In this document: in pieces, positions 1 through 35,976 of the stretch | Layout: every line of letters starts with the position of its first letter | Position numbering within the stretch: position 1 is the first letter of the stretch | IMG/VR virus record: IMGVR_UViG_3300046534_001374 | Location: 32,001-96,000 of that record | DNA length: 64,000 nucleotides | DNA from: a virus | Strand: one strand, 5' to 3' | Translations under genes and position numbers: made by a program | Notes under the pieces: model-generated | What the model was told of the DNA's origin: nothing | The model's database searches: none | Seen by the model: the letters and a program-made list of their open reading frames with translations, nothing else

Positions 1-259
1 AACCCGAAGGGACGTTAGAAACGCTTACAGACTCAGAGAGGGTCTTTGTTCTAACGTAACCCTTCTTCTCTTTGGATTTAATTTTAGATCTTAGCTTACT
101 TTCGCCTTGCCACGATCCTTTTTGTGGATTGGCATTTCCGACTCTGCCCCAACGAGCATCCCAGTGACCATCTTCATAGAGATCCACTTCATAAAATTTA
201 TTATTGTTAGCGACGATGGTGACGCAGATCAATCTGACTGTTTCTTTAATTTTGGACAT
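1..259 (-). CDS. WGR-domain protein, N-terminal part (possible PARP-like ADP-ribosyltransferase), runs off left edge
   Basis: Manual translation from ATG 259: MSKIKETVRLICVTIVANNNKFYEVDLYEDGHWDARWGRVG...KEKKGY; NNNKFY, WGRVG and KKGY are WGR hallmarks; not in ORF track. Confidence 0.8.
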   Translation of the reverse strand, partial: MSKIKETVRLICVTIVANNNKFYEVDLYEDGHWDARWGRVGNANPQKGSWQGESKLRSKIKSKEKKGYVRTKTLSESVSVSNVPSG

Positions 260-2649: not shown

Positions 2650-2769
2650 AATTGTATTTATGTGTGTTAATCCGAAATTTCTCATTTTTCTAGATATGCA
2701 ACATCCAGTTCTTTTTCATGGAATACGCCGTTGAGGTCTTGGTATTCTACATTTAAACCTGAATACCCG

Positions 2770-2865
2770 TATAAAGTTTCTGATAAAACTATCGCAAACT
2801 GGTGTAAAAGTTATGAACTCAAAAAGCCAACCAGAGGTTTTTGGGTCAAAGAAAATAATTCGTAG
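2770..2865 (+). pseudogene. C-terminal HTH remnant of a homing endonuclease
   Basis: YKVSDKTIANWCKSYELKKPTRGFW*, resembling the VSDxxxxKWCK...PxRGYW tail of phage HNH endonucleases; no ATG nearby. Confidence 0.5.
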
Positions 2866-2867
2866 TC

Positions 2868-2975
2868 GGTGCGCCCAATCAGATTCGAACTGATAACCTA
2901 GCCTTTATCCACGTAACACACTAAGATCAGTATGTTACGAAAGAGAAGCTTACTCTACCCTTGAGTTATAAGCGC
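2868..2975 (-). tRNA. tRNA (Ile-like, or Lys) with 34-nt hairpin insertion in the anticodon loop
   Basis: Acceptor GCGCTTA/TGGGCGC-A-CC, D arm ACTC/GAGT, anticodon stem AGCTT/AGGCT, T arm ATCAG-TTCGAAT-CTGAT; loop 41 nt instead of 7. Confidence 0.75.
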
Positions 2976-2982
2976 ATATTAT

Positions 2983-3073
2983 TGGCACAAGCAATAGGAT
3001 TCGAACCTACATAGTGTATTTCCAGTTACGGTATTTATTCACACTGCTTAGAAGGTAGGACCGATATACTTGC
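2983..3073 (-). tRNA. non-canonical tRNA-Arg(TCT), truncated D region with enlarged variable region
   Basis: GCAAGTA/TGCTTGT-G-CCA, loop CT-TCT-AA, T arm GTAGG-TTCGAAT-CCTAT; only 8 nt where the D arm should be. Confidence 0.7.
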
Positions 3074-3079
3074 TTAATT

Positions 3080-3120
3080 TGGTATTTTACAGGTCTACCT
3101 GCTTCTGACTATACCTAGCC
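3080..3120 (-). ncRNA. 41-nt pseudoknot-like mini-RNA, copy 1
   Basis: GGCTAGGTATAGTCAGAAGCAGGTAGACCTGTAAAATACCA; 38/41 identical to 7828-7868. Confidence 0.6.
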
Positions 3121-3128
3121 AATTTTTG

Positions 3129-3204
3129 ATGCGAGAGTTGGAATCGAACCAACGACACAACTATCTTCTCGATAGTTTGCTCTATCCAATTGAGCTATCT
3201 CGCA
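3129..3204 (-). ncRNA. tRNA-like RNA without a valid anticodon loop
   Basis: TGCGAGA/TCTCGCA acceptor, canonical D and T arms; anticodon arm is a 7-bp stem with GAGAA loop; no encoded CCA. Confidence 0.7.
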
Positions 3205-3210
3205 AACTGT

Positions 3211-3408
3211 TTACTCGTCCCAATCCGACCAAGCTGTGATGATACAAGTGGGCGAAACGACACCCAATGTATGGATAATCTCCCCTTTGTATGACTCTTC
3301 AAAATCACATTGGAATAATCGATATACATTCACTGCCCAACTGAAGGGGAAGAGGATGTAAAACACGATTATTAGGGTGGTGAGGATGGTTTTATATGTG
3401 GTGTCCAT
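3211..3408 (-). CDS. small membrane protein
   Basis: Hydrophobic segments; TTGATT-N16-TATAAT-N6-ATG. Confidence 0.7.
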   Translation of the reverse strand: MDTTYKTILTTLIIVFYILFPFSWAVNVYRLFQCDFEESYKGEIIHTLGVVSPTCIITAWSDWDE

Positions 3409-3445
3409 AATGGTATTATACTTTATTTTCTTAATTAATCAAGGA

Positions 3446-3739
3446 TTATTTGAAATATTTTACTGCTCGCTTTTCGAGGGCGTCATACGCCTCCAAAATA
3501 GGTTTCTTTCGTGATTCCAAATCCGGCTTTTCTTCTGAACGAGATTCGCCCAAAGCAAACTTGGCTCGATTAACCGCAATCGCGGTTCCAATTTTACGAT
3601 CAAAGCGATCACTCGAATCTGGATTCACCAAGGAATAACCAAATCCAAATTTACCATCTTGGTTTACCACTACCGCAACCCCAGTTGGGTTGTTATTTGA
3701 ATCTCGGATGAACGTCTTTAATACTGTATTTTCTGACAT
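3446..3739 (-). CDS. hypothetical phage protein
   Basis: TGGACA-N17-TAGAAT-N6-ATG. Confidence 0.7.
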   Translation of the reverse strand: MSENTVLKTFIRDSNNNPTGVAVVVNQDGKFGFGYSLVNPDSSDRFDRKIGTAIAVNRAKFALGESRSEEKPDLESRKKPILEAYDALEKRAVKYFK

Positions 3740-3881
3740 GTGAGTATTCTACTTTAGTTTTCGTTTTTTGTCCAGAACTATTTTGAAGAAATTATTTCCT
3801 TGGGGGGATTTTAACCCGCTCTTCTTTTCGAAGTTTCAGCACAGCGGGGTTTTATACCTGCTACGTTTAATGCTAAGGATT

Positions 3882-3958
3882 TGGCCCACCTAGAAGGATT
3901 TGAACCTTCGGCCTCCAAAGTTTCAATTTGGAACTCTACCAGACTGAGTTATAGGTGG
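3882..3958 (-). tRNA. tRNA-Phe(GAA)
   Basis: CCACCTA/TAGGTGG-G-CCA, CCAAA-TT-GAA-AC-TTTGG, canonical D and T arms. Confidence 0.9.
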
Positions 3959-3984
3959 TTTGTGATTGTTGGTTGTTGTTATTA

Positions 3985-4070
3985 TGGTGCATCAGGCGGG
4001 GGTCGAACCCGCATGCTCTAGGAGCGCGACCGTTTAAGGATCGAATGTATACCAATTCCATCACTGATGC
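3985..4070 (-). tRNA. tRNA-Leu(TAA)
   Basis: GCATCAG/CTGATGC-A-CCA, CT-TAA-AC, long variable arm. Confidence 0.9.
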
Positions 4071-4072
4071 GT

Positions 4073-4148
4073 TAGTAGTTTCCCCCAGATTCGAACTGAG
4101 AAACATCAGTTATTAACCGACTGCTTTACCTAATTTGCATAGGAAACT
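4073..4148 (-). tRNA. tRNA-Ile(AAT), atypical
   Basis: AGTTTCC/GGAAACT-A-CTA, GTCGG-TT-AAT-AA-CTGAT, CTCAG-TTCGAAT-CTGGG. Confidence 0.7.
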
Positions 4149-4151
4149 ATT

Positions 4152-4238
4152 TGGTGTGCATAATCGGACTCGAACCGATAAGGGATTACTCCCACTAGAA
4201 CCTAAACCTAGCGCGGTTACCATTTTCGCCACACGCAC
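4152..4238 (-). tRNA. tRNA-Leu(TAG)
   Basis: GTGCGTG/TATGCAC-A-CCA, TT-TAG-GT, long variable arm. Confidence 0.9.
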
Positions 4239-4294
4239 ATACCGTTGTTTTGTCAGACTGGGACAACGAGAAACCCTTTACATATTCATCTACC

Positions 4295-4933
4295 ACTGGT
4301 AGCGAACTAAGTTATTTTATAAATTTAATAAGACCTTTCTCCATTAACTCTTGGACTGTGGAAGTATCTTTCTTTTCATATACCGCAAACAACCAAGGCT
4401 TTTCGGTAATTGCCCGTTCTAAATCTGGGTCGTCATTATGTAATGATTGGATTTCGGGGGGTAGATCTCGAAACTCGGTCTTGGTGACATCGTTACGCTT
4501 CTTATAGTAATATTCCCACACTTTACTACTATCTTCTGTATTGGCACCACCAGTATGTCCATACATTAGAGTGGAAGAACCTATTTTATGTTTTTGGTAA
4601 GTTACCAGTTCCATTGCAATGTCGTATCCTAATGCGCCATAACCCTTACCCCTATAATTACCGTATGATCCTGTATGCCCATTCCAAAATCCATCAAATC
4701 TCGACTCCAGCCTCATAGAGAAAACTAAGTCTTTTTTTACTTTATTAAATATATCAAAATCCCACTGCTCCCTATTCGACGAATGTTGGTTCGCCATCCT
4801 AACGAAAATCCGAGTTTTTGGATCACTGTGTAATTCAGACACATCTGCCATACCTTCGGTTAAATCATGTAATAAAGTTTCAAAACGATCCATACATCTA
4901 CTTATCTGTTACACACTACTGGTAGCGAACTAA
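4295..4933. repeat. 16-bp direct repeats (4295-4310, 4918-4933) flanking ORF 4312-4893
   Basis: actggtagcgaactaa occurs at both positions. Confidence 0.85.
4312..4893 (-). CDS. GNAT-like acetyltransferase-fold protein (late, possibly virion-internal)
   Basis: YRGKGYGALGYDIAME resembles GNAT motif A; TAAGTA-N5-ATG. Confidence 0.55.
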   Translation of the reverse strand: MDRFETLLHDLTEGMADVSELHSDPKTRIFVRMANQHSSNREQWDFDIFNKVKKDLVFSMRLESRFDGFWNGHTGSYGNYRGKGYGALGYDIAMELVTYQKHKIGSSTLMYGHTGGANTEDSSKVWEYYYKKRNDVTKTEFRDLPPEIQSLHNDDPDLERAITEKPWLFAVYEKKDTSTVQELMEKGLIKFIK

Positions 4934-4936
4934 TTC

Positions 4937-5203
4937 TTATGGAAAGATCAAAGCAACTTTTCCGCTTTCGTGTTCTATTTTAAATTCTTCCCACTCTACT
5001 TCATCATCAAAACCAGCGTCATCGGCAGACCAATTTGGGTCGTATAGCTGGGCATCCCAACCAGAACTACCTTTAACATAAAAACATTCGGTATGGACAC
5101 CCGCAATAGTTTCATAACCATTACCTTCGGCATTCTTTTGGAGGATGATTTCCATATCGTCAGGGATATCTTTAATTTGTTCTTTTAGTTTTCCAATCGT
5201 CAT
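4937..5203 (-). CDS. hypothetical phage protein
   Basis: MTIGKLKEQIKDIPDDMEI...P architecture common among small phage proteins. Confidence 0.75.
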   Translation of the reverse strand: MTIGKLKEQIKDIPDDMEIILQKNAEGNGYETIAGVHTECFYVKGSSGWDAQLYDPNWSADDAGFDDEVEWEEFKIEHESGKVALIFP

Positions 5204-5456
5204 TATTTTATATTAACATTCCGATTATACTTTTCAAGTGTTTCTATAAAATGAATCTCACATTCGGACTATACCGCTCACATACATCGTAGACTTGAGA
5301 CCAATCTACGTGAGTTTTGAATTGTCGGAGATCAAGCCGACTCACATTAAATTTAAACTAGGTTAGCACGACACACTTTAGTTTTACGAACCACGACATC
5401 GTGCTGTCTCAGTCCACTTATGCGATCCCTATCTCAGGGGTATCCACCGTTTAAAT

Positions 5457-5529
5457 TGGTAGCTCGTCCGAGAATCGAACTCGGCTGGAAAGCATATGAA
5501 ACTTTCTACTTCACCTGAAGTAACGAGCA
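5457..5529 (-). tRNA. tRNA-Met(CAT) (or Ile2) with compact D-loop
   Basis: TGCTCGT/ACGAGCT-A-CCA, CTTC-AGGT-GAAG D arm, TT-CAT-AT loop, CCGAG-TTCGATT-CTCGG. Confidence 0.75.
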
Positions 5530-5532
5530 GTT

Positions 5533-5790
5533 TTAACCTGCATTAAAAGAACTACAAATAATTGTGCCTTCTTTTTGTCTTTGGTTTGCTTTACCTATAC
5601 ACTCAACTGTAATTGAATTCAGATCAGATGTCCAACCACAATTCCGATTGTGTGACATATCAGTGTCTTTATAGAATTCGTGATTAGGGTAATAAGTAAG
5701 TGCTTTTTGTTTTGATTTTGAAACTACGACAAAGGAATCATAACAGTCGTAACTTTTATTTTTATCTTGTTGGAGTAAGTAAATGTTCAT
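5533..5790 (-). CDS. hypothetical phage protein
   Basis: MNIYLL...YDSFVVV...SFNAG; TTGACA-N17-TAGTAT-N6-ATG. Confidence 0.75.
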   Translation of the reverse strand: MNIYLLQQDKNKSYDCYDSFVVVSKSKQKALTYYPNHEFYKDTDMSHNRNCGWTSDLNSITVECIGKANQRQKEGTIICSSFNAG

Positions 5791-5958
5791 GTTGGTATAC
5801 TACCGTGCTAATGAGAATTTGTCAAGCCAGTTTCTAAATTTATTCTCATCTTCGGTCAACCTAGAATCCTTAAAACATATGAAGCCCATACTCGTTTCTC
5901 ATCGAGTAATAACTCTAACGTATCTTCTGTATCAAACTCCAACGCTTCATATTTTGCA

Positions 5959-6228
5959 CTATAAATTCTCTGATATCTTAGGGGTTATGGCGGGAGGAAT
6001 CGGGACTTGAATCACCTTTGACTTGAAGTAGTTTGTTTTACCACAAACCACACAATCCCCTGTCCAATAGTCTCCATCTCTTTGAGTTGAAAATTGTTTT
6101 ACCTCATCCCCCTGTTCCGAATAGTGTTTTACCTCATCTTCTTCTGCCTCTAATTCAGACTTACATTTGTTGCAAGTGCATGTATATACAGTTTTGGAAA
6201 TATGCGTTCCTCTTTTGATTACTTTCAT
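5959..6228 (-). CDS. zinc-ribbon protein
   Basis: CNKC and CVVC pairs. Confidence 0.7.
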   Translation of the reverse strand: MKVIKRGTHISKTVYTCTCNKCKSELEAEEDEVKHYSEQGDEVKQFSTQRDGDYWTGDCVVCGKTNYFKSKVIQVPIPPAITPKISENL

Positions 6229-6277
6229 ATTGAATTGGTAGTGATGAATAACTCCTTAAAAAGCTAGGAGTATAGTT

Positions 6278-6367
6278 TGGCAGACTAGCATAGCATCGAA
6301 CTATTACCCCATCTCTGACGCACTATGCTTTTCAAGAGCATTTGAGGAGCCGACCTCAGACTAGTCC
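6278..6367 (-). tRNA. tRNA-Ser(TGA)
   Basis: GGACTAG/CTAGTCT-G-CCA, ATGCT-CT-TGA-AA-AGCAT, long variable arm. Confidence 0.85.
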
Positions 6368-6371
6368 ATTT

Positions 6372-7034
6372 TTAAATCTTTTTGATATACATTTGCCCCT
6401 TAATATTTTCGGGAACTCTCATTCCATACGTCATACTAAGAAAATCTCCCGAAAAATCATTAGGATGCATATACTTTATTCTGTGGATAAAATTCTTAAT
6501 GTAAAATTTGATACCAATACCGTCAATACTAACTCTGCATTCACCAATTCTATTCGGCTCTATCGCAAAGGTGGTTTTAATATCAGGATCAAATTGGCTA
6601 ACTATAGTATATCTTCCCGCATTCAAAAGGTTGAATATAATTCTCTTATGGATTTCTCTTTCTATCACAGGTAAAGCTCTATCGAACTTATTGTCACCAG
6701 AAGAAATTCTCCTGTTGCACATTTCCATACCGTCCACAATAAAGTCTGTGGTCATTTTGGTTTCGACATATGGTGCAAATACCACGCTATCCTTCAGATC
6801 TCGGGATAACATGCTGACAACATCATTCTGGTCTGTATAGTCTACGCGAGGAAGACAACTAGTGATGTTTGCCATACTTTTGGTTGAGTTGATTAAATCG
6901 ACCCACAAACCATAATCAAAAAATTTCTTGTGACTGAATATGGGTGACGGTTTGACACCGCCAATATTCAGTTTAGAATATGTTACTACTGGAGTAGCGA
7001 GGAGTAGTGTTGATAAAAAGGTTCGTTTTTTCAT
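6372..7034 (-). CDS. hypothetical protein with signal-like N-terminus
   Basis: 220-aa ORF, N-terminus MKKRTFLSTLLLA. Confidence 0.6.
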   Translation of the reverse strand: MKKRTFLSTLLLATPVVTYSKLNIGGVKPSPIFSHKKFFDYGLWVDLINSTKSMANITSCLPRVDYTDQNDVVSMLSRDLKDSVVFAPYVETKMTTDFIVDGMEMCNRRISSGDNKFDRALPVIEREIHKRIIFNLLNAGRYTIVSQFDPDIKTTFAIEPNRIGECRVSIDGIGIKFYIKNFIHRIKYMHPNDFSGDFLSMTYGMRVPENIKGQMYIKKI

Positions 7035-7040
7035 AAATGT

Positions 7041-7184
7041 ATGTTGTTTGATCCTAGTAAGGAGGAGTTACAGGAAAAAATTTCTAGTGGGCTACCTTTA
7101 ACTAAAATTGGTCAGTATTATGGTGTTTCGGTTAATGCTATCCGAAAACGTTGTAAAAAACTACAAATAAGTTTCAAAAGGTAG
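7041..7184 (+). CDS. stand-alone HTH (homing-endonuclease C-terminal type), 47 aa
   Basis: MLFDPSKEELQEKISSGLPLTKIGQYYGVSVNAIRKRCKKLQISFKR*; below ORF track cutoff. Confidence 0.55.
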   Translation: MLFDPSKEELQEKISSGLPLTKIGQYYGVSVNAIRKRCKKLQISFKR

Positions 7185-7186
7185 AT

Positions 7187-7262
7187 TGGCTCTAGATTGT
7201 GGTAACGCTCCACACGCTCTCTTCTTAACAGGAAGGCCCGTTCGCTTGCTCGGTCATCTAGA
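7187..7262 (-). tRNA. tRNA-Asn(GTT) with non-canonical D/T loops
   Basis: TCTAGAT/ATCTAGA-G-CCA, CT-GTT-AA, T-loop AGCGTTA, D-loop lacks GG. Confidence 0.75.
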
Positions 7263-7265
7263 ATT

Positions 7266-7340
7266 TGGCAGTATAGGAAGGACTCGAACCTTCATTTTAT
7301 GGATCAACAATCCACGGCATTGCCATTATGCTACTATACT
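7266..7340 (-). tRNA. tRNA-Asn(GTT)
   Basis: AGTATAG/CTATACT-G-CCA, TT-GTT-GA, canonical arms. Confidence 0.9.
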
Positions 7341-7456
7341 ATGTTTATAAGCCATAAGGTCTAATCTTTCGATCTACAGGGGTAGCGTAGTGATCATCTG
7401 GTATGCTGGCCAGACATCGTTATCCTTATTGTTGTTTAAGCGTATGCTTATAAAAT

Positions 7457-7532
7457 TGGTCCGCTAGGAGGGAGACGATCCCCCAACCTTGTCGTTAAAA
7501 GCGACCTGCTCTGCCTATTGAGCTACTAGCGG
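7457..7532 (-). tRNA. tRNA-Lys(TTT)
   Basis: CCGCTAG/CTAGCGG-A-CCA, CT-TTT-AA; T-loop ATCGTCT. Confidence 0.85.
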
Positions 7533-7541
7533 TTTAAAAAT

Positions 7542-7618
7542 TGTGTCGTATGGGTATCGATCCCACTTATTACCTAACCTCCACTTTTCACAGCTTTGGA
7601 TGCCACCTGATACGACCC
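7542..7618 (-). pseudogene. degenerate tRNA-like element (His-GTG-like loop)
   Basis: T arm GTGGG-ATCGATA-CCCAT, imperfect acceptor GGGTCGT/ACGACAC, CT-GTG-AA in a poorly paired arm, no CCA. Confidence 0.4.
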
Positions 7619-7635
7619 TTAAAATATGACTTACT

Positions 7636-7706
7636 CTAACCTCTGGAATTGAACCAGAGTCTGCCGCTTTATAAGCCGCCGTAATTTCCAATTATACCAA
7701 GTTATT
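7636..7706 (-). pseudogene. tRNA-like element with ATA loop and defective acceptor
   Basis: D arm GTA..TAC, GCGGC-TT-ATA-AA-GCGGC, TCTGG-TTCAATT-CCAGA; only 5-bp acceptor, no CCA. Confidence 0.45.
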
Positions 7707-7749
7707 TCTGTCCACAACCAAAGAGCAAATAACTCTCTCAGATCATGTT

Positions 7750-7824
7750 TGAAGTCAAGAGTTAGATTCGAACTAACGACACTCCCTCAATTAAAGGCTG
7801 CTCTAACCACTGAGCTATCTTGAC
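7750..7824 (-). ncRNA. tRNA-like RNA without a valid anticodon loop (paralogue of 3129-3204)
   Basis: GTCAAGA/TCTTGAC-T-TCA, canonical D/T arms, arm CCTTT-AATT-GAGGG. Confidence 0.7.
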
Positions 7825-7827
7825 TTA

Positions 7828-7868
7828 TGGTATTTTACGGGTCTACCCGCTCCTGACTATACCTAGCC
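7828..7868 (-). ncRNA. 41-nt pseudoknot-like mini-RNA, copy 2
   Basis: GGCTAGGTATAGTCAGGAGCGGGTAGACCCGTAAAATACCA. Confidence 0.6.
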
Positions 7869-7870
7869 TT

Positions 7871-8043
7871 TGGTGTCCCATGTGGGGATTCGAACCCTAC
7901 TCACATTATATCCTTTGTCAATTACTAATGCATTTTCTTTGACACTCTATTTCCTGTGGGCCGATACTTCATCTTACGACTTCTTCGGGCACACTTCTTA
8001 CACTACGTTTAAGTAGTAGCTCTAGCCATTGAGCTAATGGGAC
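7871..8043 (-). ncRNA. 173-nt tRNA-like RNA with about 100 nt of extra domains
   Basis: GTCCCAT/ATGGGAC-A-CCA, GCTC/GAGC D arm, GGG-TTCGAAT-CCC T arm, several hairpins between. Confidence 0.7.
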
Positions 8044-8113
8044 TTTTAATTCTCATAACAAATACAAGTCAACATGAAATTGTAATGTTGTAAAGGTTTA
8101 TCTTAACTTAATT

Positions 8114-8206
8114 TGGAGCGGAGGAACCGATTCGAACGGCTATCTGTTCTCAGTTGTATAAGGTTAGGCTTGGATTCGCCCTGTGCTGCCATTACACCAC
8201 CTCCGC
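8114..8206 (-). tRNA. atypical tRNA-Gly(TCC)
   Basis: GCGGAGG/CCTCCGC-T-CCA (U73, Gly-like), 8-nt loop GAATCCAA, 24-nt variable region. Confidence 0.65.
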
Positions 8207-8215
8207 TTTTTACTG

Positions 8216-8608
8216 TTACCAGTCAATATTTATAACGTATTCTCCTGCTTCGATCAAGCCCTTTTTGAATAAATCGTCAAAGAGTATTTCGATGTTTGGA
8301 AAGAAATTCCGTTCCCAAAACATTTCAAGAGTCCAAGCAGAGTCGGATTCTGAAAGTTGTTCTGTGGGATCTCGCTCAAGCCAGTCTTTCAAAGAAACAG
8401 AACCATACTCATTTTTAATGATATCCTCTAGGACATATCCTTCTAGGACATATCCTTCTTCAACATCTTTCACAGGAACTTTTACATATTGGGTTCCTCT
8501 TGCTCTACAACCAAATTGTTGCTGAAAGCTAAAAGGTCTTTTGTAAGTTTCCTCGATGAAATCGTCCAAATCTGAGACTTGGACATATTTTATGGTTTCG
8601 TATTTCAT
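8216..8608 (-). CDS. hypothetical phage protein
   Basis: 130-aa ORF ending GEYVINIDW. Confidence 0.75.
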   Translation of the reverse strand: MKYETIKYVQVSDLDDFIEETYKRPFSFQQQFGCRARGTQYVKVPVKDVEEGYVLEGYVLEDIIKNEYGSVSLKDWLERDPTEQLSESDSAWTLEMFWERNFFPNIEILFDDLFKKGLIEAGEYVINIDW

Positions 8609-8632
8609 GTTTTATGTTTTATGGTTTAAATT

Positions 8633-8929
8633 CTATTCGAAATACCGTTCGTTGTCAAGAGGAAACCATCTGTTTCTCACTGACTTGGCGTAGTCTTCAA
8701 CACTACCCTCAAACTCATCGAACACTGTTTTGACTCGGCCATCTACTGAATCACCGTATGAATGGAACAATTCTAGAAACTCGATTGCCCTTCCGGCAAC
8801 ACTAATATGGCGTTTAAAATCACCTACTGGTGGATTCTTCTTCGCGCAGAAATCATCTACTGTTGCCAGTAGGCATTCTGCGATGTAAATTGCTGCCTTC
8901 GTCGGGTTGCATACGTTGATTCTCTTCAT
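8633..8929 (-). CDS. hypothetical phage protein
   Basis: TTGACA-N17-TACCTT-N6-ATG. Confidence 0.7.
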   Translation of the reverse strand: MKRINVCNPTKAAIYIAECLLATVDDFCAKKNPPVGDFKRHISVAGRAIEFLELFHSYGDSVDGRVKTVFDEFEGSVEDYAKSVRNRWFPLDNERYFE

Positions 8930-8973
8930 GTCGTTAAGGTATATTGTTTGGGTTGTTTTGTCAACGTTTAAAT

Positions 8974-9048
8974 TGGTTACAGGAGAAGAAATCGAATCTT
9001 CGTAGAAAGGGATATGAACCCTATCAGGGAACCAACACCCTTCCTGCT
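8974..9048 (-). tRNA. initiator-type tRNA-fMet(CAT)
   Basis: A1:A72 mismatch, GGG/CCC at base of anticodon stem, TT-CAT-AT, CCA encoded. Confidence 0.75.
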
Positions 9049-9051
9049 ATT

Positions 9052-9175
9052 TGGAGATTAACAACAAACTCAATCATTGTCAACCTTTATCAACAGGAAA
9101 AATCATTTTTGTTTCTCCTGTCTTTCTATAGCGAACGTCCTGCCATTTCTGGGGGCACCGAATTTTAATCTCTCC
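9052..9175 (-). ncRNA. candidate ~120-nt structured RNA ending in CCA
   Basis: Terminal helix GAGATTAA/TTAATCTC, internal ACAGGA/TCCTGT hairpin. Confidence 0.4.
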
Positions 9176-9184
9176 GCTTGAAAT

Positions 9185-9217
9185 AAAAAACCCATTTAAC
9201 TGTTAAGCTAAATGGGT
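9185..9217 (-). terminator. intrinsic terminator (attenuator)
   Basis: ACCCATTTAGC-TTAACA-GTTAAATGGG followed by T6-ATTT. Confidence 0.85.
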
Positions 9218-9246
9218 GTCGTATTTCTAAAATCTTTATTTTATAC

Positions 9247-9324
9247 TTAACACACCCGCAGGGAATTACTTCTCTTGCAAAAGAGAGATCTTCCTAAATT
9301 TATGTTTGACATAATGTGTTTCAT
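9247..9324 (-). CDS. putative attenuator leader peptide MKHIMSNINLGRSLFCKRSNSLRVC
   Basis: 25-codon ORF between a promoter and a terminator; its 3' end GGGTGT is complementary to ACACCC at the terminator base. Confidence 0.65.
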   Translation of the reverse strand: MKHIMSNINLGRSLFCKRSNSLRVC

Positions 9325-9339
9325 TGGCTTTGTTGTTAT

Positions 9340-9369
9340 TACTTATAGCAGAGGTTTGCTCTTTTGCAA
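9340..9369 (-). promoter_or_regulatory. promoter of the tRNA array (sigma70-like, overlapping late motif)
   Basis: TTGCAA-N16-TATAAG overlapping TAAGTA. Confidence 0.55.
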
Positions 9370-9392
9370 TTAAAATGTTAATTTTTTTAAGT

Positions 9393-9506
9393 TGGTGTTA
9401 GAGCGGGATTTGCACCCACATATTGTAGCTATATCAATATTCCACATACTACTTCAAAATCACTCACTTTCTAGAATTAAGAGCAATTTTTGCAGTGGAC
9501 CTAAAC
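9393..9506 (-). ncRNA. tRNA-capped RNA (acceptor + T arm + CCA, no D arm)
   Basis: GTGGG-TGCAAAT-CCCGC-TCTAAC-A-CCA; long TCCAC..GTGGA-closed hairpin; ATATTG/CAATAT hairpin. Confidence 0.55.
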
Positions 9507-9514
9507 TTTTAAAT

Positions 9515-9637
9515 TGGAGATCTTGGATGGGGTTGAACCACACTAACCCTAAGCTTTCGGGGTATTCCTTATATTACCGACTCTTCGGAATTTATAGAGT
9601 GCTAGCCCTTTATAAATTCCTGCAATAAGCCAAGACC
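9515..9637 (-). ncRNA. tRNA-capped RNA (acceptor + T arm + CCA)
   Basis: GGTCTTG/CAAGATC-T-CCA, GTGG-TTCAACC-CCAT, GGAATTTATA/TATAAATTCC hairpin. Confidence 0.6.
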
Positions 9638-9658
9638 TTGTTGGGGGTTATTTGTAAC

Positions 9659-9856
9659 CTAGATCCACCGAGGTAGTGGACTTCCTTGCTTTCCGCTTTC
9701 TGCCGCAAAGAGCGCATAGGCATCTTTTAGAGCTTTAGCCGAATCTCTATATCCTGATTCGCTGGATTGCATACTCAGAGATCCGCCTTTACAGGCATAT
9801 CGGTTTGAATGTGACGATTGGGCTGTTTTGTATTTGTTTTCAAGTTCTTCTAACAT
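9659..9856 (-). CDS. hypothetical protein
   Basis: ORF in early cluster. Confidence 0.5.
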   Translation of the reverse strand: MLEELENKYKTAQSSHSNRYACKGGSLSMQSSESGYRDSAKALKDAYALFAAESGKQGSPLPRWI

Positions 9857-9932
9857 TGTTTTGTTTTCGTTTCTTTCGATGTTTTTAAATTAGCACGGGG
9901 TTTATAATTCGGCAAGTGCTAACTTGAGTTTT

Positions 9933-10295
9933 TTAAATTTTGTATTTTGCACGGATGTCTTCAAAAAGCATAGGCTCCTCGTTGACCATGAAAATGTGGA
10001 ACGAGAGGCTTTTAGCCAAGCTATCCGAGATTTTCAGAGTATCGAACTCAGCAACCATTGGCTTATCCTCGTCGATATCCATCATGGAGACTTCCTCAAG
10101 AGTGACCACACCATCCTCTGTAATGGTCAGAACGTAATCACCACGCTCACCGAGGTTGTAAAATACCCGAGACCCTTTGGTGTGTTTGGATGGATACTCC
10201 ACTTGGAATTCTCTGCCTTCAAAGGTAACTCCATAGACTTTGAATTCATATTCTTGGACTACCCTTACTAGTTCGTTTCTCAGTTCGTTTCTCAT
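9933..10295 (-). CDS. hypothetical protein
   Basis: TTGACG-N17-TATAGT promoter upstream. Confidence 0.7.
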   Translation of the reverse strand: MRNELRNELVRVVQEYEFKVYGVTFEGREFQVEYPSKHTKGSRVFYNLGERGDYVLTITEDGVVTLEEVSMMDIDEDKPMVAEFDTLKISDSLAKSLSFHIFMVNEEPMLFEDIRAKYKI

Positions 10296-10392
10296 AACGA
10301 CCGGACTATACCCAATTTTTAGAGTTTCGTCAATTTAAATTTTAATTTCATTTTGTCCTTGCAAAATGAAATAAATGCCTTATGCTGATAGC

Positions 10393-10524
10393 ATGATTGA
10401 ATTATTAATTGTCCTAGCTGTATTGGGAGCCGCTTTATTATTGTGTGTCGGAATTATTTTCGTTGTCTTTAAAATCATTATGCTGTTATCGGGAGCAGTA
10501 TTTGCCTTTTTGGATATGTTCTAG
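10393..10524 (+). CDS. 43-aa type IV pilin N-terminal-helix mimic
   Basis: MIELLIVLAVLGAALLLCVGIIFVVFKIIMLLSGAVFAFLDMF*; TTGCAA-N16-TATGCT-N6-ATG; not in ORF track. Confidence 0.65.
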   Translation: MIELLIVLAVLGAALLLCVGIIFVVFKIIMLLSGAVFAFLDMF

Positions 10525-10568
10525 AAATCCCGTAAGCTAATGCTTATAGGCTTTCTCATCCACCAAAC

Positions 10569-11678
10569 CTAAAACCCTGTTAGGTTTCCTAAAACCTCTA
10601 TACCTTGGTTGATTGTATCGCACAATGTTCTGGGGTCTGTGTTTATAGCCCTCAATTTATTTCCCTTGTGGATATACTCGTGTTGAAGATTTCTATACGG
10701 TGGTAGCATTTCACTTACTTGTAAATTGCACGAGTATACTTCAGGGATTGGTTCGCCGTCAACATAAAGAAAGTTGCCCTGTCCTTGGTAGTCGAAATTA
10801 AATTTAACAATAGGTATGAACCGTAAACCTTTAATTTCCACCTCACCCACTACAGGAGAATCCTCAATCCATTTGTTTCTAGATCTTGCAGACACCATGT
10901 AAGACATAAATCTAACAAATTCGATATTTCTCTTAGTCGTTGCTTCATCAAACGTGTTGATCAAGTCAAAGCTTAAATTATAATCGGGTGTTAGTGCTTG
11001 CCCTCGGTAAAACCTATCCGAACTACTAGTAGCATTAACCGAAGGGTAAATTGCCCTAGCTACAGAATTACCAATACCACCTAAGTTTCTAGTTAGAGAG
11101 CCGCCCATTAATAGCTTACCGGCATTGCCGCCAGCCAAAGCACTATTTTGGAAGAAGCTAGAAGCACTATTCATAATATTCCCTATAGGGTTTGAACCCT
11201 CACCCTCGCCGTCACCAAATTGGGTGTTATAGGTCTGAGGTAATAAACTCAGCATAGGAAGTTTGATGGTCCATTTGAGATCATCGGCAATCAACATGTT
11301 GGCATATGGATTGGTGATATAAGAATTGATTTTTTCCATAAGAGATGAATCTTTAGGAAGCTGATCCGCTATCTGAAACCCTTGGGTTAGTGTTGTAAAC
11401 AGATTTGTAATCATCGAACTATACTTTGGTTGAAATAATTTGATAGTATAACTAACCAAATCCTTTTTAGCAAAAGCAGGATTCAATGACCATGAAGTAG
11501 ATTGTGTTAAATCGATAACCCCCGCAGTTCTAGAAGGGGCTACATATGGTTGGGCTGGATCATTGCTATCCATTTTGAATTTAATAGCATCTCCAAAAAT
11601 CCCCGATTTTGAACCGCGAGATTTCCCTAGTTCAAATTCGCTTTGAACTATCTGGTCGTTGAATACATTTACAGCCAT
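10569..11678 (-). CDS. baseplate tail-tube cap-like protein (T4 gp48-like)
   Basis: Size, Gly/Asn-rich middle, tube-cap-like C-terminus, adjacent to gp25; TAAATA-N5-ATG. Confidence 0.5.
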   Translation of the reverse strand: MAVNVFNDQIVQSEFELGKSRGSKSGIFGDAIKFKMDSNDPAQPYVAPSRTAGVIDLTQSTSWSLNPAFAKKDLVSYTIKLFQPKYSSMITNLFTTLTQGFQIADQLPKDSSLMEKINSYITNPYANMLIADDLKWTIKLPMLSLLPQTYNTQFGDGEGEGSNPIGNIMNSASSFFQNSALAGGNAGKLLMGGSLTRNLGGIGNSVARAIYPSVNATSSSDRFYRGQALTPDYNLSFDLINTFDEATTKRNIEFVRFMSYMVSARSRNKWIEDSPVVGEVEIKGLRFIPIVKFNFDYQGQGNFLYVDGEPIPEVYSCNLQVSEMLPPYRNLQHEYIHKGNKLRAINTDPRTLCDTINQGIEVLGNLTGF

Positions 11679-35823: not shown

Positions 35824-35976
35824 TACCTTTAATTAGGCTTTTGGTATTGTATCAATCCAACAAGACGTGAGAGAGCGACGATCTGCCGCTAGTAAAGTTT
35901 ATGGTTATATTAGATCGCGTTTTAATTCTGCGTTCATAAACATTGATTAAACCCAACCTAAACCTTAATTACAATT

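Follow-up and report, generated by a model that had tools for sequence, protein, structure and literature searches.

The window analyzed here comprises 64,000 nucleotides (nt), bases 32001 to 96000 of the IMG/VR virus record IMGVR_UViG_3300046534_001374, a 139.6-kb sequence estimated to be 65% complete. The record belongs to a large novel phage with T4-like functions, among them a baseplate wedge, a ribonucleotide reductase, an SbcC-like nuclease and a helicase. About 23 kb of its minus strand carry about 35 tRNA and tRNA-like genes, with small open reading frames (ORFs) in between. All tRNA genes of this cluster lie on the minus strand, and the same is true of both copies of a 41-nt element, designated E1 and E2, with which this analysis is concerned. 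An encoded CCA end was found in 25 of the 33 minus-strand tRNA calls listed for the record, and the element is likewise CCA ended.

The original prediction, made from the sequence alone, described two 41-nt copies located 4.7 kb apart that differ at three positions and end in ACCA. A repeat search recovered both as direct repeats with 38 of 41 bases identical and confirmed the ACCA terminus of each; the three mismatches affect element positions 17, 21 and 30 (3104/7852, 3100/7848 and 3091/7839, respectively). For the first 16 bases of the element, with three mismatches allowed, the chance expectation is 0.21 occurrences in the 64-kb stretch. A covariance model scored E1 and E2 at approximately 67 bits each, and nothing else in the 139.6-kb record exceeded 11 bits. 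Two weaker candidates were rejected: a model match at 2740-2793 (10.8 bits) had only the tail motif in common with the element, and a weak third copy at 10301-10325 is in fact the -10 region of an ordinary promoter. Each of the two copies occupies a tRNA-to-tRNA spacer, of which only 2 to 7 nt remain per side. E1 follows the tRNA-like gene A1 after 7 nt and is separated by 6 nt from gene C, and E2 lies between gene G and the tRNA-like gene A2, with 2 nt on either side. The prediction had also placed a tRNA mimic without an anticodon next to each copy, and these neighbors, A1 and A2, are indeed paralogous tRNA-like genes with a noncanonical anticodon arm.

A third copy (E3) was found at positions 901-942 of L106, an ENA contig from a related phage, by a model built from E1 and E2 only (49.6 bits, E value of 5e-10). 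This contig had been reached from the ORF at 1951-2685 of the window, by way of its 67%-identical homolog, and orthologous proteins of the L106 phage and of the record are 66 to 72% identical. The context in L106 consists of a 10/12 promoter, an ortholog of A1 (88% identical), 3 nt, E3, 5 nt and a tRNA(CAT), and no terminator-like site was found across the scanned stretch of this contig, including through the element. Since E3 comes directly after the A1 ortholog, the adjacency of the element to an A gene is conserved, and the unit looks cotranscribed. The first and last bases of the element are identical in all three copies, and the flanking spacers of 2 to 7 nt vary in both length and sequence. 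In near-identical strain contigs from five other samples, the copies were identical to E1 and E2, so they offer no population variation to be used.

E3 is 85% identical to E1 and 90% identical to E2. At third codon positions, two neighboring genes show 44% and 56% identity between the phages, and a third one shows 78%. The conservation of the element compared to silent sites that are near saturation in two of the three neighboring genes shows that it is under purifying selection, about as strong as that acting on the adjacent tRNA-like gene A1, whose identity across phages (88%) is comparable to that of the element.

The alignment of the three copies contains six substituted columns and one inserted base, a U within loop 1 of E3. 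Position 17, in the linker, has three different states in the three copies, and position 26 is substituted within loop 2. At positions 20 and 32 of hairpin 2, one partner alone has changed and pairing is retained (C-G to U.G and G.U to G-C), and positions 21 and 30, which pair with each other in this same hairpin, show a double change (A-U in E1, G-C in E2 and E3). The latter is the compensatory swap already proposed from E1 and E2, and the G-C shared by E2 and E3 makes it probable that E1, with its A-U, has the derived state. Given three random substitutions, the probability of the double change by itself is 1.6 to 2.9%. Overall, three of the five pairs of hairpin 2 vary, and all 15 cells (five pairs in three copies) remain paired. 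All six substitutions are confined to positions 17 to 32, and hairpin 1 and its loop bases, the CAG that follows and the nine-base tail AAAAUACCA are invariant; by simple arithmetic, such clustering would arise in approximately 0.3% of cases if six substitutions were placed uniformly over 41 positions. This pattern suggests that hairpin 2 is constrained by its shape, while hairpin 1 and the tail are constrained by their sequence, in both cases on an RNA of the tRNA sense.

Folding with ViennaRNA gave for all copies a minimum free energy (MFE) structure of two independent 5-bp tetraloop hairpins and a free 9-nt tail. On the tRNA-sense strand, the MFE values of E1, E2 and E3 were -10.7, -12.2 and -11.4 kcal/mol (z scores of -2.3, -1.7 and -2.05), and the antisense strand was no better folded than shuffled sequences (z scores of -0.5 to -0.8). 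Each hairpin contains one G.U pair where the other strand would have an A-C mismatch, which makes the hairpins strand specific. When whole precursors were folded, the element retained both hairpins beside intact cloverleaves. A search of Rfam 15 over positions 2700-10600 produced no family matching the element, either at the gathering threshold or at an E value of ≤10. The proposal of an RNA-level structure under selection and belonging to no recognized family is thus supported by the conservation of E3, the pair-keeping changes of hairpin 2, the folding restricted to the sense strand and the lack of an Rfam match. We propose, with moderate confidence, that the element represents a small module of structured RNA, which takes a “tRNA slot” in the tRNA operon and is transcribed within the tRNA polycistron; its cotranscription with the tRNAs is plausible from the gene arrangement. 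The coordinates of the element, its parts and its surroundings are given in Table 1.

Table 1. Coordinates, within the 64,000-nt window, of the element copies, their parts and neighboring features
Feature	Position	Strand	Remarks
Copy E1, 41-nt element	3080..3120	minus	Between tRNA-like A1 and odd tRNA-Arg(TCT)-like gene C; covariance model, 67.2 bits
Copy E2, 41-nt element	7828..7868	minus	Between 173-nt tRNA-like gene G and tRNA-like A2; covariance model, 67.7 bits
E1 hairpin 1, GGCUA-GGUA-UAGUC, including one G.U	3107..3120	minus	Stem and loop invariant across the three known copies
E1 hairpin 2, 5 bp, UAGA loop	3089..3102	minus	Holds the A-U pair replaced by G-C in E2 and E3
E1 tail AAAAUACCA	3080..3088	minus	Invariant in all copies; its AUACC complements loop 1 (GGUA and next U)
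E2 hairpin 1	7855..7868	minus	
E2 hairpin 2	7837..7850	minus	G-C at the covarying pair
E2 tail AAAAUACCA	7828..7836	minus	
Promoter-like match in E1, TAGTCA-16-TAAAAT	3084..3111	minus	9/12
Promoter-like match in E2, TAGTCA-16-TAAAAT	7832..7859	minus	9/12; A2 begins 7 nt after the -10 hexamer
A1, tRNA-Phe-derived tRNA-like gene	3128..3204	minus	7-bp “anticodon” stem, 5-nt loop, UCA for CCA; 7 nt upstream of E1
A2, paralog of A1 (75% identical)	7751..7825	minus	6-nt anticodon loop; 2 nt downstream of E2
Gene C, odd tRNA-Arg(TCT)-like gene	2983..3073	minus	Reduced D arm; Rfam tRNA model, only 22 bits
Gene G, 173-nt tRNA-shaped gene	7871..8043	minus	Acceptor, D and T arms, encoded ACCA, 6-nt “anticodon” loop
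tRNA with 34-nt hairpin within the anticodon loop	2868..2975	minus	
Conserved block of ~110 nt	7341..7456	minus	Between tRNA-Lys and tRNA-Asn
tRNA-Met	8974..9048	minus	
Promoter upstream of tRNA-Met, TTGACA-17-TAATCT	9049..9090	minus	Exactly 6 nt before tRNA-Met

The complementarity between loop 1 and tail that the prediction had pointed out, GGUA(U) with (A)UACC, is a perfect Watson-Crick match present in three of the three copies. As a subcase of the structured RNA, the element might form an H-type pseudoknot, in which loop 1 and the next U pair with the AUACC of the tail and the new helix stacks on a 4-bp hairpin 1 to yield a compact, exonuclease-resistant knot. Both partners are among the most conserved parts of the element, and the inserted U of E3 widens loop 1 to exactly five bases matching the tail. 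A knot would shield the otherwise exposed 3' tail and account for the lack of substitutions in loop and tail. Minimal RNase P substrates are known among hairpin or pseudoknot RNAs that carry a 3' RCCA (Kosek et al. 2025, PMC12710915). The element resembles these in being small, folded, possibly pseudoknotted and ACCA ended, and its location is one at which the neighboring tRNAs are processed by RNase P and 3' trimming; however, the model substrates have a free RCCA right after the helix, while the CCA of the element is 9 nt away from hairpin 2 or else partly buried. Other considerations are less favorable to the knot. Every loop base would be engaged in the helix, zero or one base would be left as a linker, and the closing pair of hairpin 1 must open. 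The rough energy balance is about zero or slightly unfavorable (approximately -7.4 kcal/mol for the helix and +2.0 for the loss of the closing pair, against the textbook pseudoknot penalty of 6 to 9 kcal/mol). All four to five pairs are invariant, and with both partners unchanged there is no covariation that could speak for or against the helix. In addition, the CC of the CCA end would be buried within it, an argument against an acceptor function of the tail like that in a tRNA. The pseudoknot is a reasonable subhypothesis, possible but, given the nested alternatives and the energy balance, thermodynamically marginal, and we consider its formation rather doubtful.

Several points weigh against a structured RNA. 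The shuffle control of the pair count was not significant by itself (177/500), and hairpin 1 and the loop-tail pairing are devoid of any covariation. Only three sequences are known, all from one narrow lineage and two of them paralogs, and we infer the transcription, the discrete ends and the stability of the element. A single-stranded 3' tail of 9 nt normally invites exonucleases. Sigma-70 promoters abound in this phage, and the element matches one as well; it could be a promoter cassette, i.e., a sigma-70-type early promoter (-35 TAGTCA, 16-nt spacer, -10 TAAAAT and discriminator ACCA) in which the hairpins are incidental. Transcription would start on the initial base of the tRNA-like gene that follows, or shortly before it, and give a “leaderless” tRNA, in parallel to leaderless mRNAs. 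The phage appears to use the latter: the ATG of ORFs of at least 40 codons is found 6 or 7 nt after a -10 hexamer in 9 and 11 cases, respectively, against a background of about 2, and the small ORFs of the tRNA region each have such a promoter. Both E1 and E2 match the sigma-70 hexamers at 9 of 12 positions with the 16-nt spacing, and their three differences all fall in the promoter spacer. Counting from the -10 hexamer of E2, A2 begins at the 7th base, the same geometry as for the ATG of about 20 leaderless genes, and TAnnAT-ACCA is also present in two strong nearby promoters (3442-3405 and 5825-5788). The tRNA-Met gene beginning at 9048 is preceded by TTGACA-17-TAATCT plus 6 nt. By a position weight matrix trained on the leaderless promoters of the phage itself, E1 and E2 rank within the top 0.1 to 0.2% of all positions, although their scores (6.6 to 8.4 bits) correspond to the bottom of the training range (7 to 21 bits), with only 0.7 bits contributed by the -35 hexamer, and 9/12 matches in the region are mostly due to chance (27 found versus 20.7 expected). 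The -10 hexamer of E3 is CAAAAT (8/12, under the scan threshold), and the change that removes the T at -12 is the very one that turns a G.U of hairpin 2 into G-C. Conservation is not concentrated on the hexamers with spacer and flanks left free; nine bases upstream of the -35 hexamer and the ACCA are invariant across species, although a plain promoter needs neither. Among the three copies, the downstream gene starts 6, 10 and 9 nt past the hexamer, a good promoter already drives the L106 unit, and among the other tRNAs of the cluster, none has a promoter of at least 9/12 at such a distance. In short, the element shares with the leaderless promoters of this phage the pair of hexamers, the 16-nt spacing, the TAnnAT-ACCA and, in E2, a +1 on the first base of the next gene, but differs in its poor -35, its conservation over the whole 41 nt, its GC-rich and hairpin-forming spacer and the degraded -10 of the related phage. 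A promoter with incidental hairpins is therefore, in our judgment, unlikely. The element might also do both at once, its RNA being structured in transcripts that read through it and its DNA acting as a weak internal promoter of the tRNA-like gene that follows. Such a dual role would account for the structure-preserving substitutions, the promoter-like geometry and the ACCA discriminator found in neighboring promoters, but it requires two functions within 41 nt, and its promoter half is weakened in the third copy; we regard it as improbable.

The remaining alternative is a DNA-level site or a neutral relic, i.e., repeats of a recombination or att type, an operator bound by a protein, or what is left of a decayed or duplicated tRNA gene devoid of function as RNA. 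The copies are direct repeats 4.7 kb apart that end in ACCA like the 3' end of a tRNA, the paralogous A genes beside both of them show that the region was duplicated in the past, and hairpin 2, being palindromic, could be bound by a protein. Template switching at quasi-palindromes can make symmetric changes without selection. However, conservation across species is well above that of silent sites in two of the three neighboring genes, which excludes a neutral relic, and the related phage keeps the arrangement of A gene and element within a unit that looks cotranscribed. Besides, the G.U pairs give both hairpins strand specificity. As for att-type repeats, the element matches the 3' end of none of the neighboring tRNAs, and no integrase or nuclease Pfam domain was detected in ten ORFs scanned in and around the interval. 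The tRNA finders are silent on the element, even in mitochondrial mode. All these variants are very unlikely in our view, and the structured RNA module is the interpretation retained in what follows.

Some more specific identities were also examined. A small ribozyme had been among the original suggestions and is not supported; among the families considered (hammerhead, pistol, twister, twister-sister, hatchet and HDV-like), no Rfam ribozyme family matched at an E value of ≤10, and inspection of the sequence revealed no hammerhead CUGANGA...GAAA core within the element. The topology of the pistol ribozyme does not fit either, as there the pseudoknot partner of the loop lies inside P2/P3. The element is not a tRNA: it has no RF00005 match at an E value of ≤10, it is not called by ARAGORN in its standard, intron or mitochondrial modes, and the seven bases that precede ACCA have no complement at its 5' end. 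One low-threshold ARAGORN call (2983-3118, with a 62-nt “intron”) was discarded because its acceptor stem is not complementary. A coding function was rejected as well, all three frames of the element being closed or lacking a start codon. With respect to a solitary mimic of a host CRISPR repeat (an RNA anti-CRISPR), the pattern scans of genomes and metagenomes produced chance matches only, none of them within an array.

The element appears to be very restricted in its distribution. Scans with exact and degenerate patterns retrieved only chance matches from IMG/VR, metagenome contigs and GTDB genome contigs, as judged by reading the sequences and by scoring them with the model, and blastn against GenBank phages found no homolog of the element. 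The model had no match in 1.35 Mb around the nearest homologs of the adjacent phrog_27943 gene, several of which are located in tRNA arrays, nor did it find the element in 13 loci with an A-type T arm. In the 71% relative L011, it is absent from the place syntenic with E2. Relatives of ORF97 (46 to 48% identity) were not accompanied by the element, and their gene maps showed no tRNA-array context; ORF220 had no relative at the 50% cluster level. So far, the element is confined to two related uncultured phages and is apparently undescribed.

Extra small RNAs in phage tRNA clusters have been known since T4, whose tRNA cluster encodes the small non-tRNA RNAs C and D, with roles that are still unknown (PMC3014915). 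Our element is a new and very rare example of these unexplained extra RNAs: it is located inside a tRNA cluster, on the tRNA strand, it is not a tRNA and it is conserved in a relative. Nevertheless, RNA C and RNA D have sizes of approximately 120 to 140 nt, and the element, with its 41 to 42 nt and two tetraloop hairpins, is far smaller and apparently unrelated to them in sequence. Another possible parallel is found in the viral tRNA-like structures with a pseudoknotted acceptor arm, e.g., that of turnip yellow mosaic virus (PMC7749636). Both would place a pseudoknot, only proposed in our case, beside a 3'-terminal ACCA in a viral RNA, but the plant virus structures have 80 nt or more, mimic a whole tRNA, leave the ACCA unpaired and form the 3' ends of RNA virus genomes. 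Candidate roles for RNAs of this kind include tRNA processing, protection of tRNA ends and decoying of host nucleases or toxins. The unusually small size and clear anatomy of the element, together with a constant partner gene (a nondecoding tRNA-Phe derivative), provide a compact and testable entry to their function, although its value is limited by the rarity of the element, restricted as it is to two related phages.

According to the structured RNA interpretation, the element would be transcribed on the tRNA strand within a polycistronic precursor and would fold by itself into two 5-bp tetraloop hairpins with a CCA-ended 9-nt tail. It would then be released as an RNA of 41 to 42 nt by the same cuts that free the neighboring tRNAs. 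Its 3' side would arise when RNase P cuts the following tRNA at its 5' end and the leftover bases are trimmed as far as the encoded CCA; its 5' side would come from a cleavage behind the preceding tRNA. Hairpin 2 might act as a structural spacer, with a sequence that is free as long as pairing holds, whereas hairpin 1, with its GGUA loop, and the tail AAAAUACCA would be read by sequence, presumably by a protein or enzyme acting on the 3' ends of tRNAs. Alternatively, the loop of hairpin 1 and the tail may recognize each other, so that the loop-tail helix tucks in the 3' end. The constant neighbor, the nondecoding tRNA-Phe-like RNA A, suggests that the element and A act in the same process. Direct pairing between the two RNAs was no better than that of shuffled sequences. 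If the element is an RNA, it could be a trans-acting mimic or decoy of tRNA ends, or a protein-binding RNA, rather than a mere processing spacer, but this is a weak guess that we would not expect to hold. A function as processing aid for the CCA-less A RNA would be another guess, and so are the processing signal, the nuclease-blocking knot and the protein sponge put forward initially. More speculative still, and quite unlikely, is a two-part decoy in which a free, CCA-ended mini-RNA protected by a pseudoknot and a tRNA-Phe look-alike would together divert a host enzyme or defense toxin that recognizes tRNA 3' ends or acceptor arms. If the decoy interpretation were true, the phage would carry a dedicated 41-nt “acceptor-end mimic” gene.

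Regarding the partner genes, A1 and A2 terminate in UCA and CAA, respectively, while CCA is encoded by most other tRNAs of the phage, and the CCA-adding enzyme domain PF01743 was not found in the record. Their T arm is that of ordinary phage tRNA-Phe(GAA) genes; in the 13 loci with an A-type T arm mentioned above, the readable anticodon loops were GAA, i.e., ordinary tRNA-Phe genes. In the A RNAs of both phages (the ortholog is at L106:821-897), the T and D arms are intact and the anticodon arm is remodeled, with a loop G(A/U)GAA. The remodeled 7-bp anticodon stem covaries between species. From these features, we interpret the A RNAs as conserved nondecoding derivatives of tRNA-Phe(GAA).

Other genes of the array are also atypical. 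Gene G carries approximately 100 extra nt at the position of the variable arm and was missed by the Rfam tRNA model. The related phage has a canonical tRNA-Arg(TCT) (L106:1102-1175) in place of gene C, and the ortholog of the tRNA at 2868-2975 (L106:947-1020) is an ordinary tRNA(CAT) that lacks the 34-nt hairpin, which indicates that this hairpin is a lineage-specific insertion, either a mini-intron or a disabling insert. The conserved block between tRNA-Lys and tRNA-Asn is a candidate for another small RNA of the array and has roughly 85% identity to L011:897-1013. For this block, RNAalifold predicted a 9-bp closing stem with inner helices, some of the changes being pair preserving; it had no Rfam match.

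Concerning the promoters of the phage, strong TTGACA-17-TAnnAT promoters were found on the minus strand at 3405-3442, 3737-3774, 5788-5825, 5201-5237 and 568-602, with others genome wide, and the distance from promoter to ATG had a further peak at 9 nt. Given that the promoter of tRNA-Met lies exactly 6 nt before the gene, this tRNA may be transcribed from its mature first base as a “leaderless tRNA.” The motif TANAATACC occurred 18 times in the 64-kb stretch versus 3.2 expected from shuffles (e.g., at 1808-1830 and 35843-35851). Some of its sites coincide with the -10 regions of promoters, two of them make up a long palindrome (1808-1830) and many are within genes; as many of the latter are on the opposite strand, the motif is not a clean promoter signal. 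A reading of the plus strand of the element as a MotA-like box was rejected, since the spacing is wrong and the motif is lost in copy 2. Finally, the gene adjoining the tRNA cluster (1-258, minus strand, running past the start of the stretch) is listed in the gene table of L006, an identical contig, as encoding a protein of 416 amino acids with a Pfam match to PARP (ADP-ribosyltransferase).

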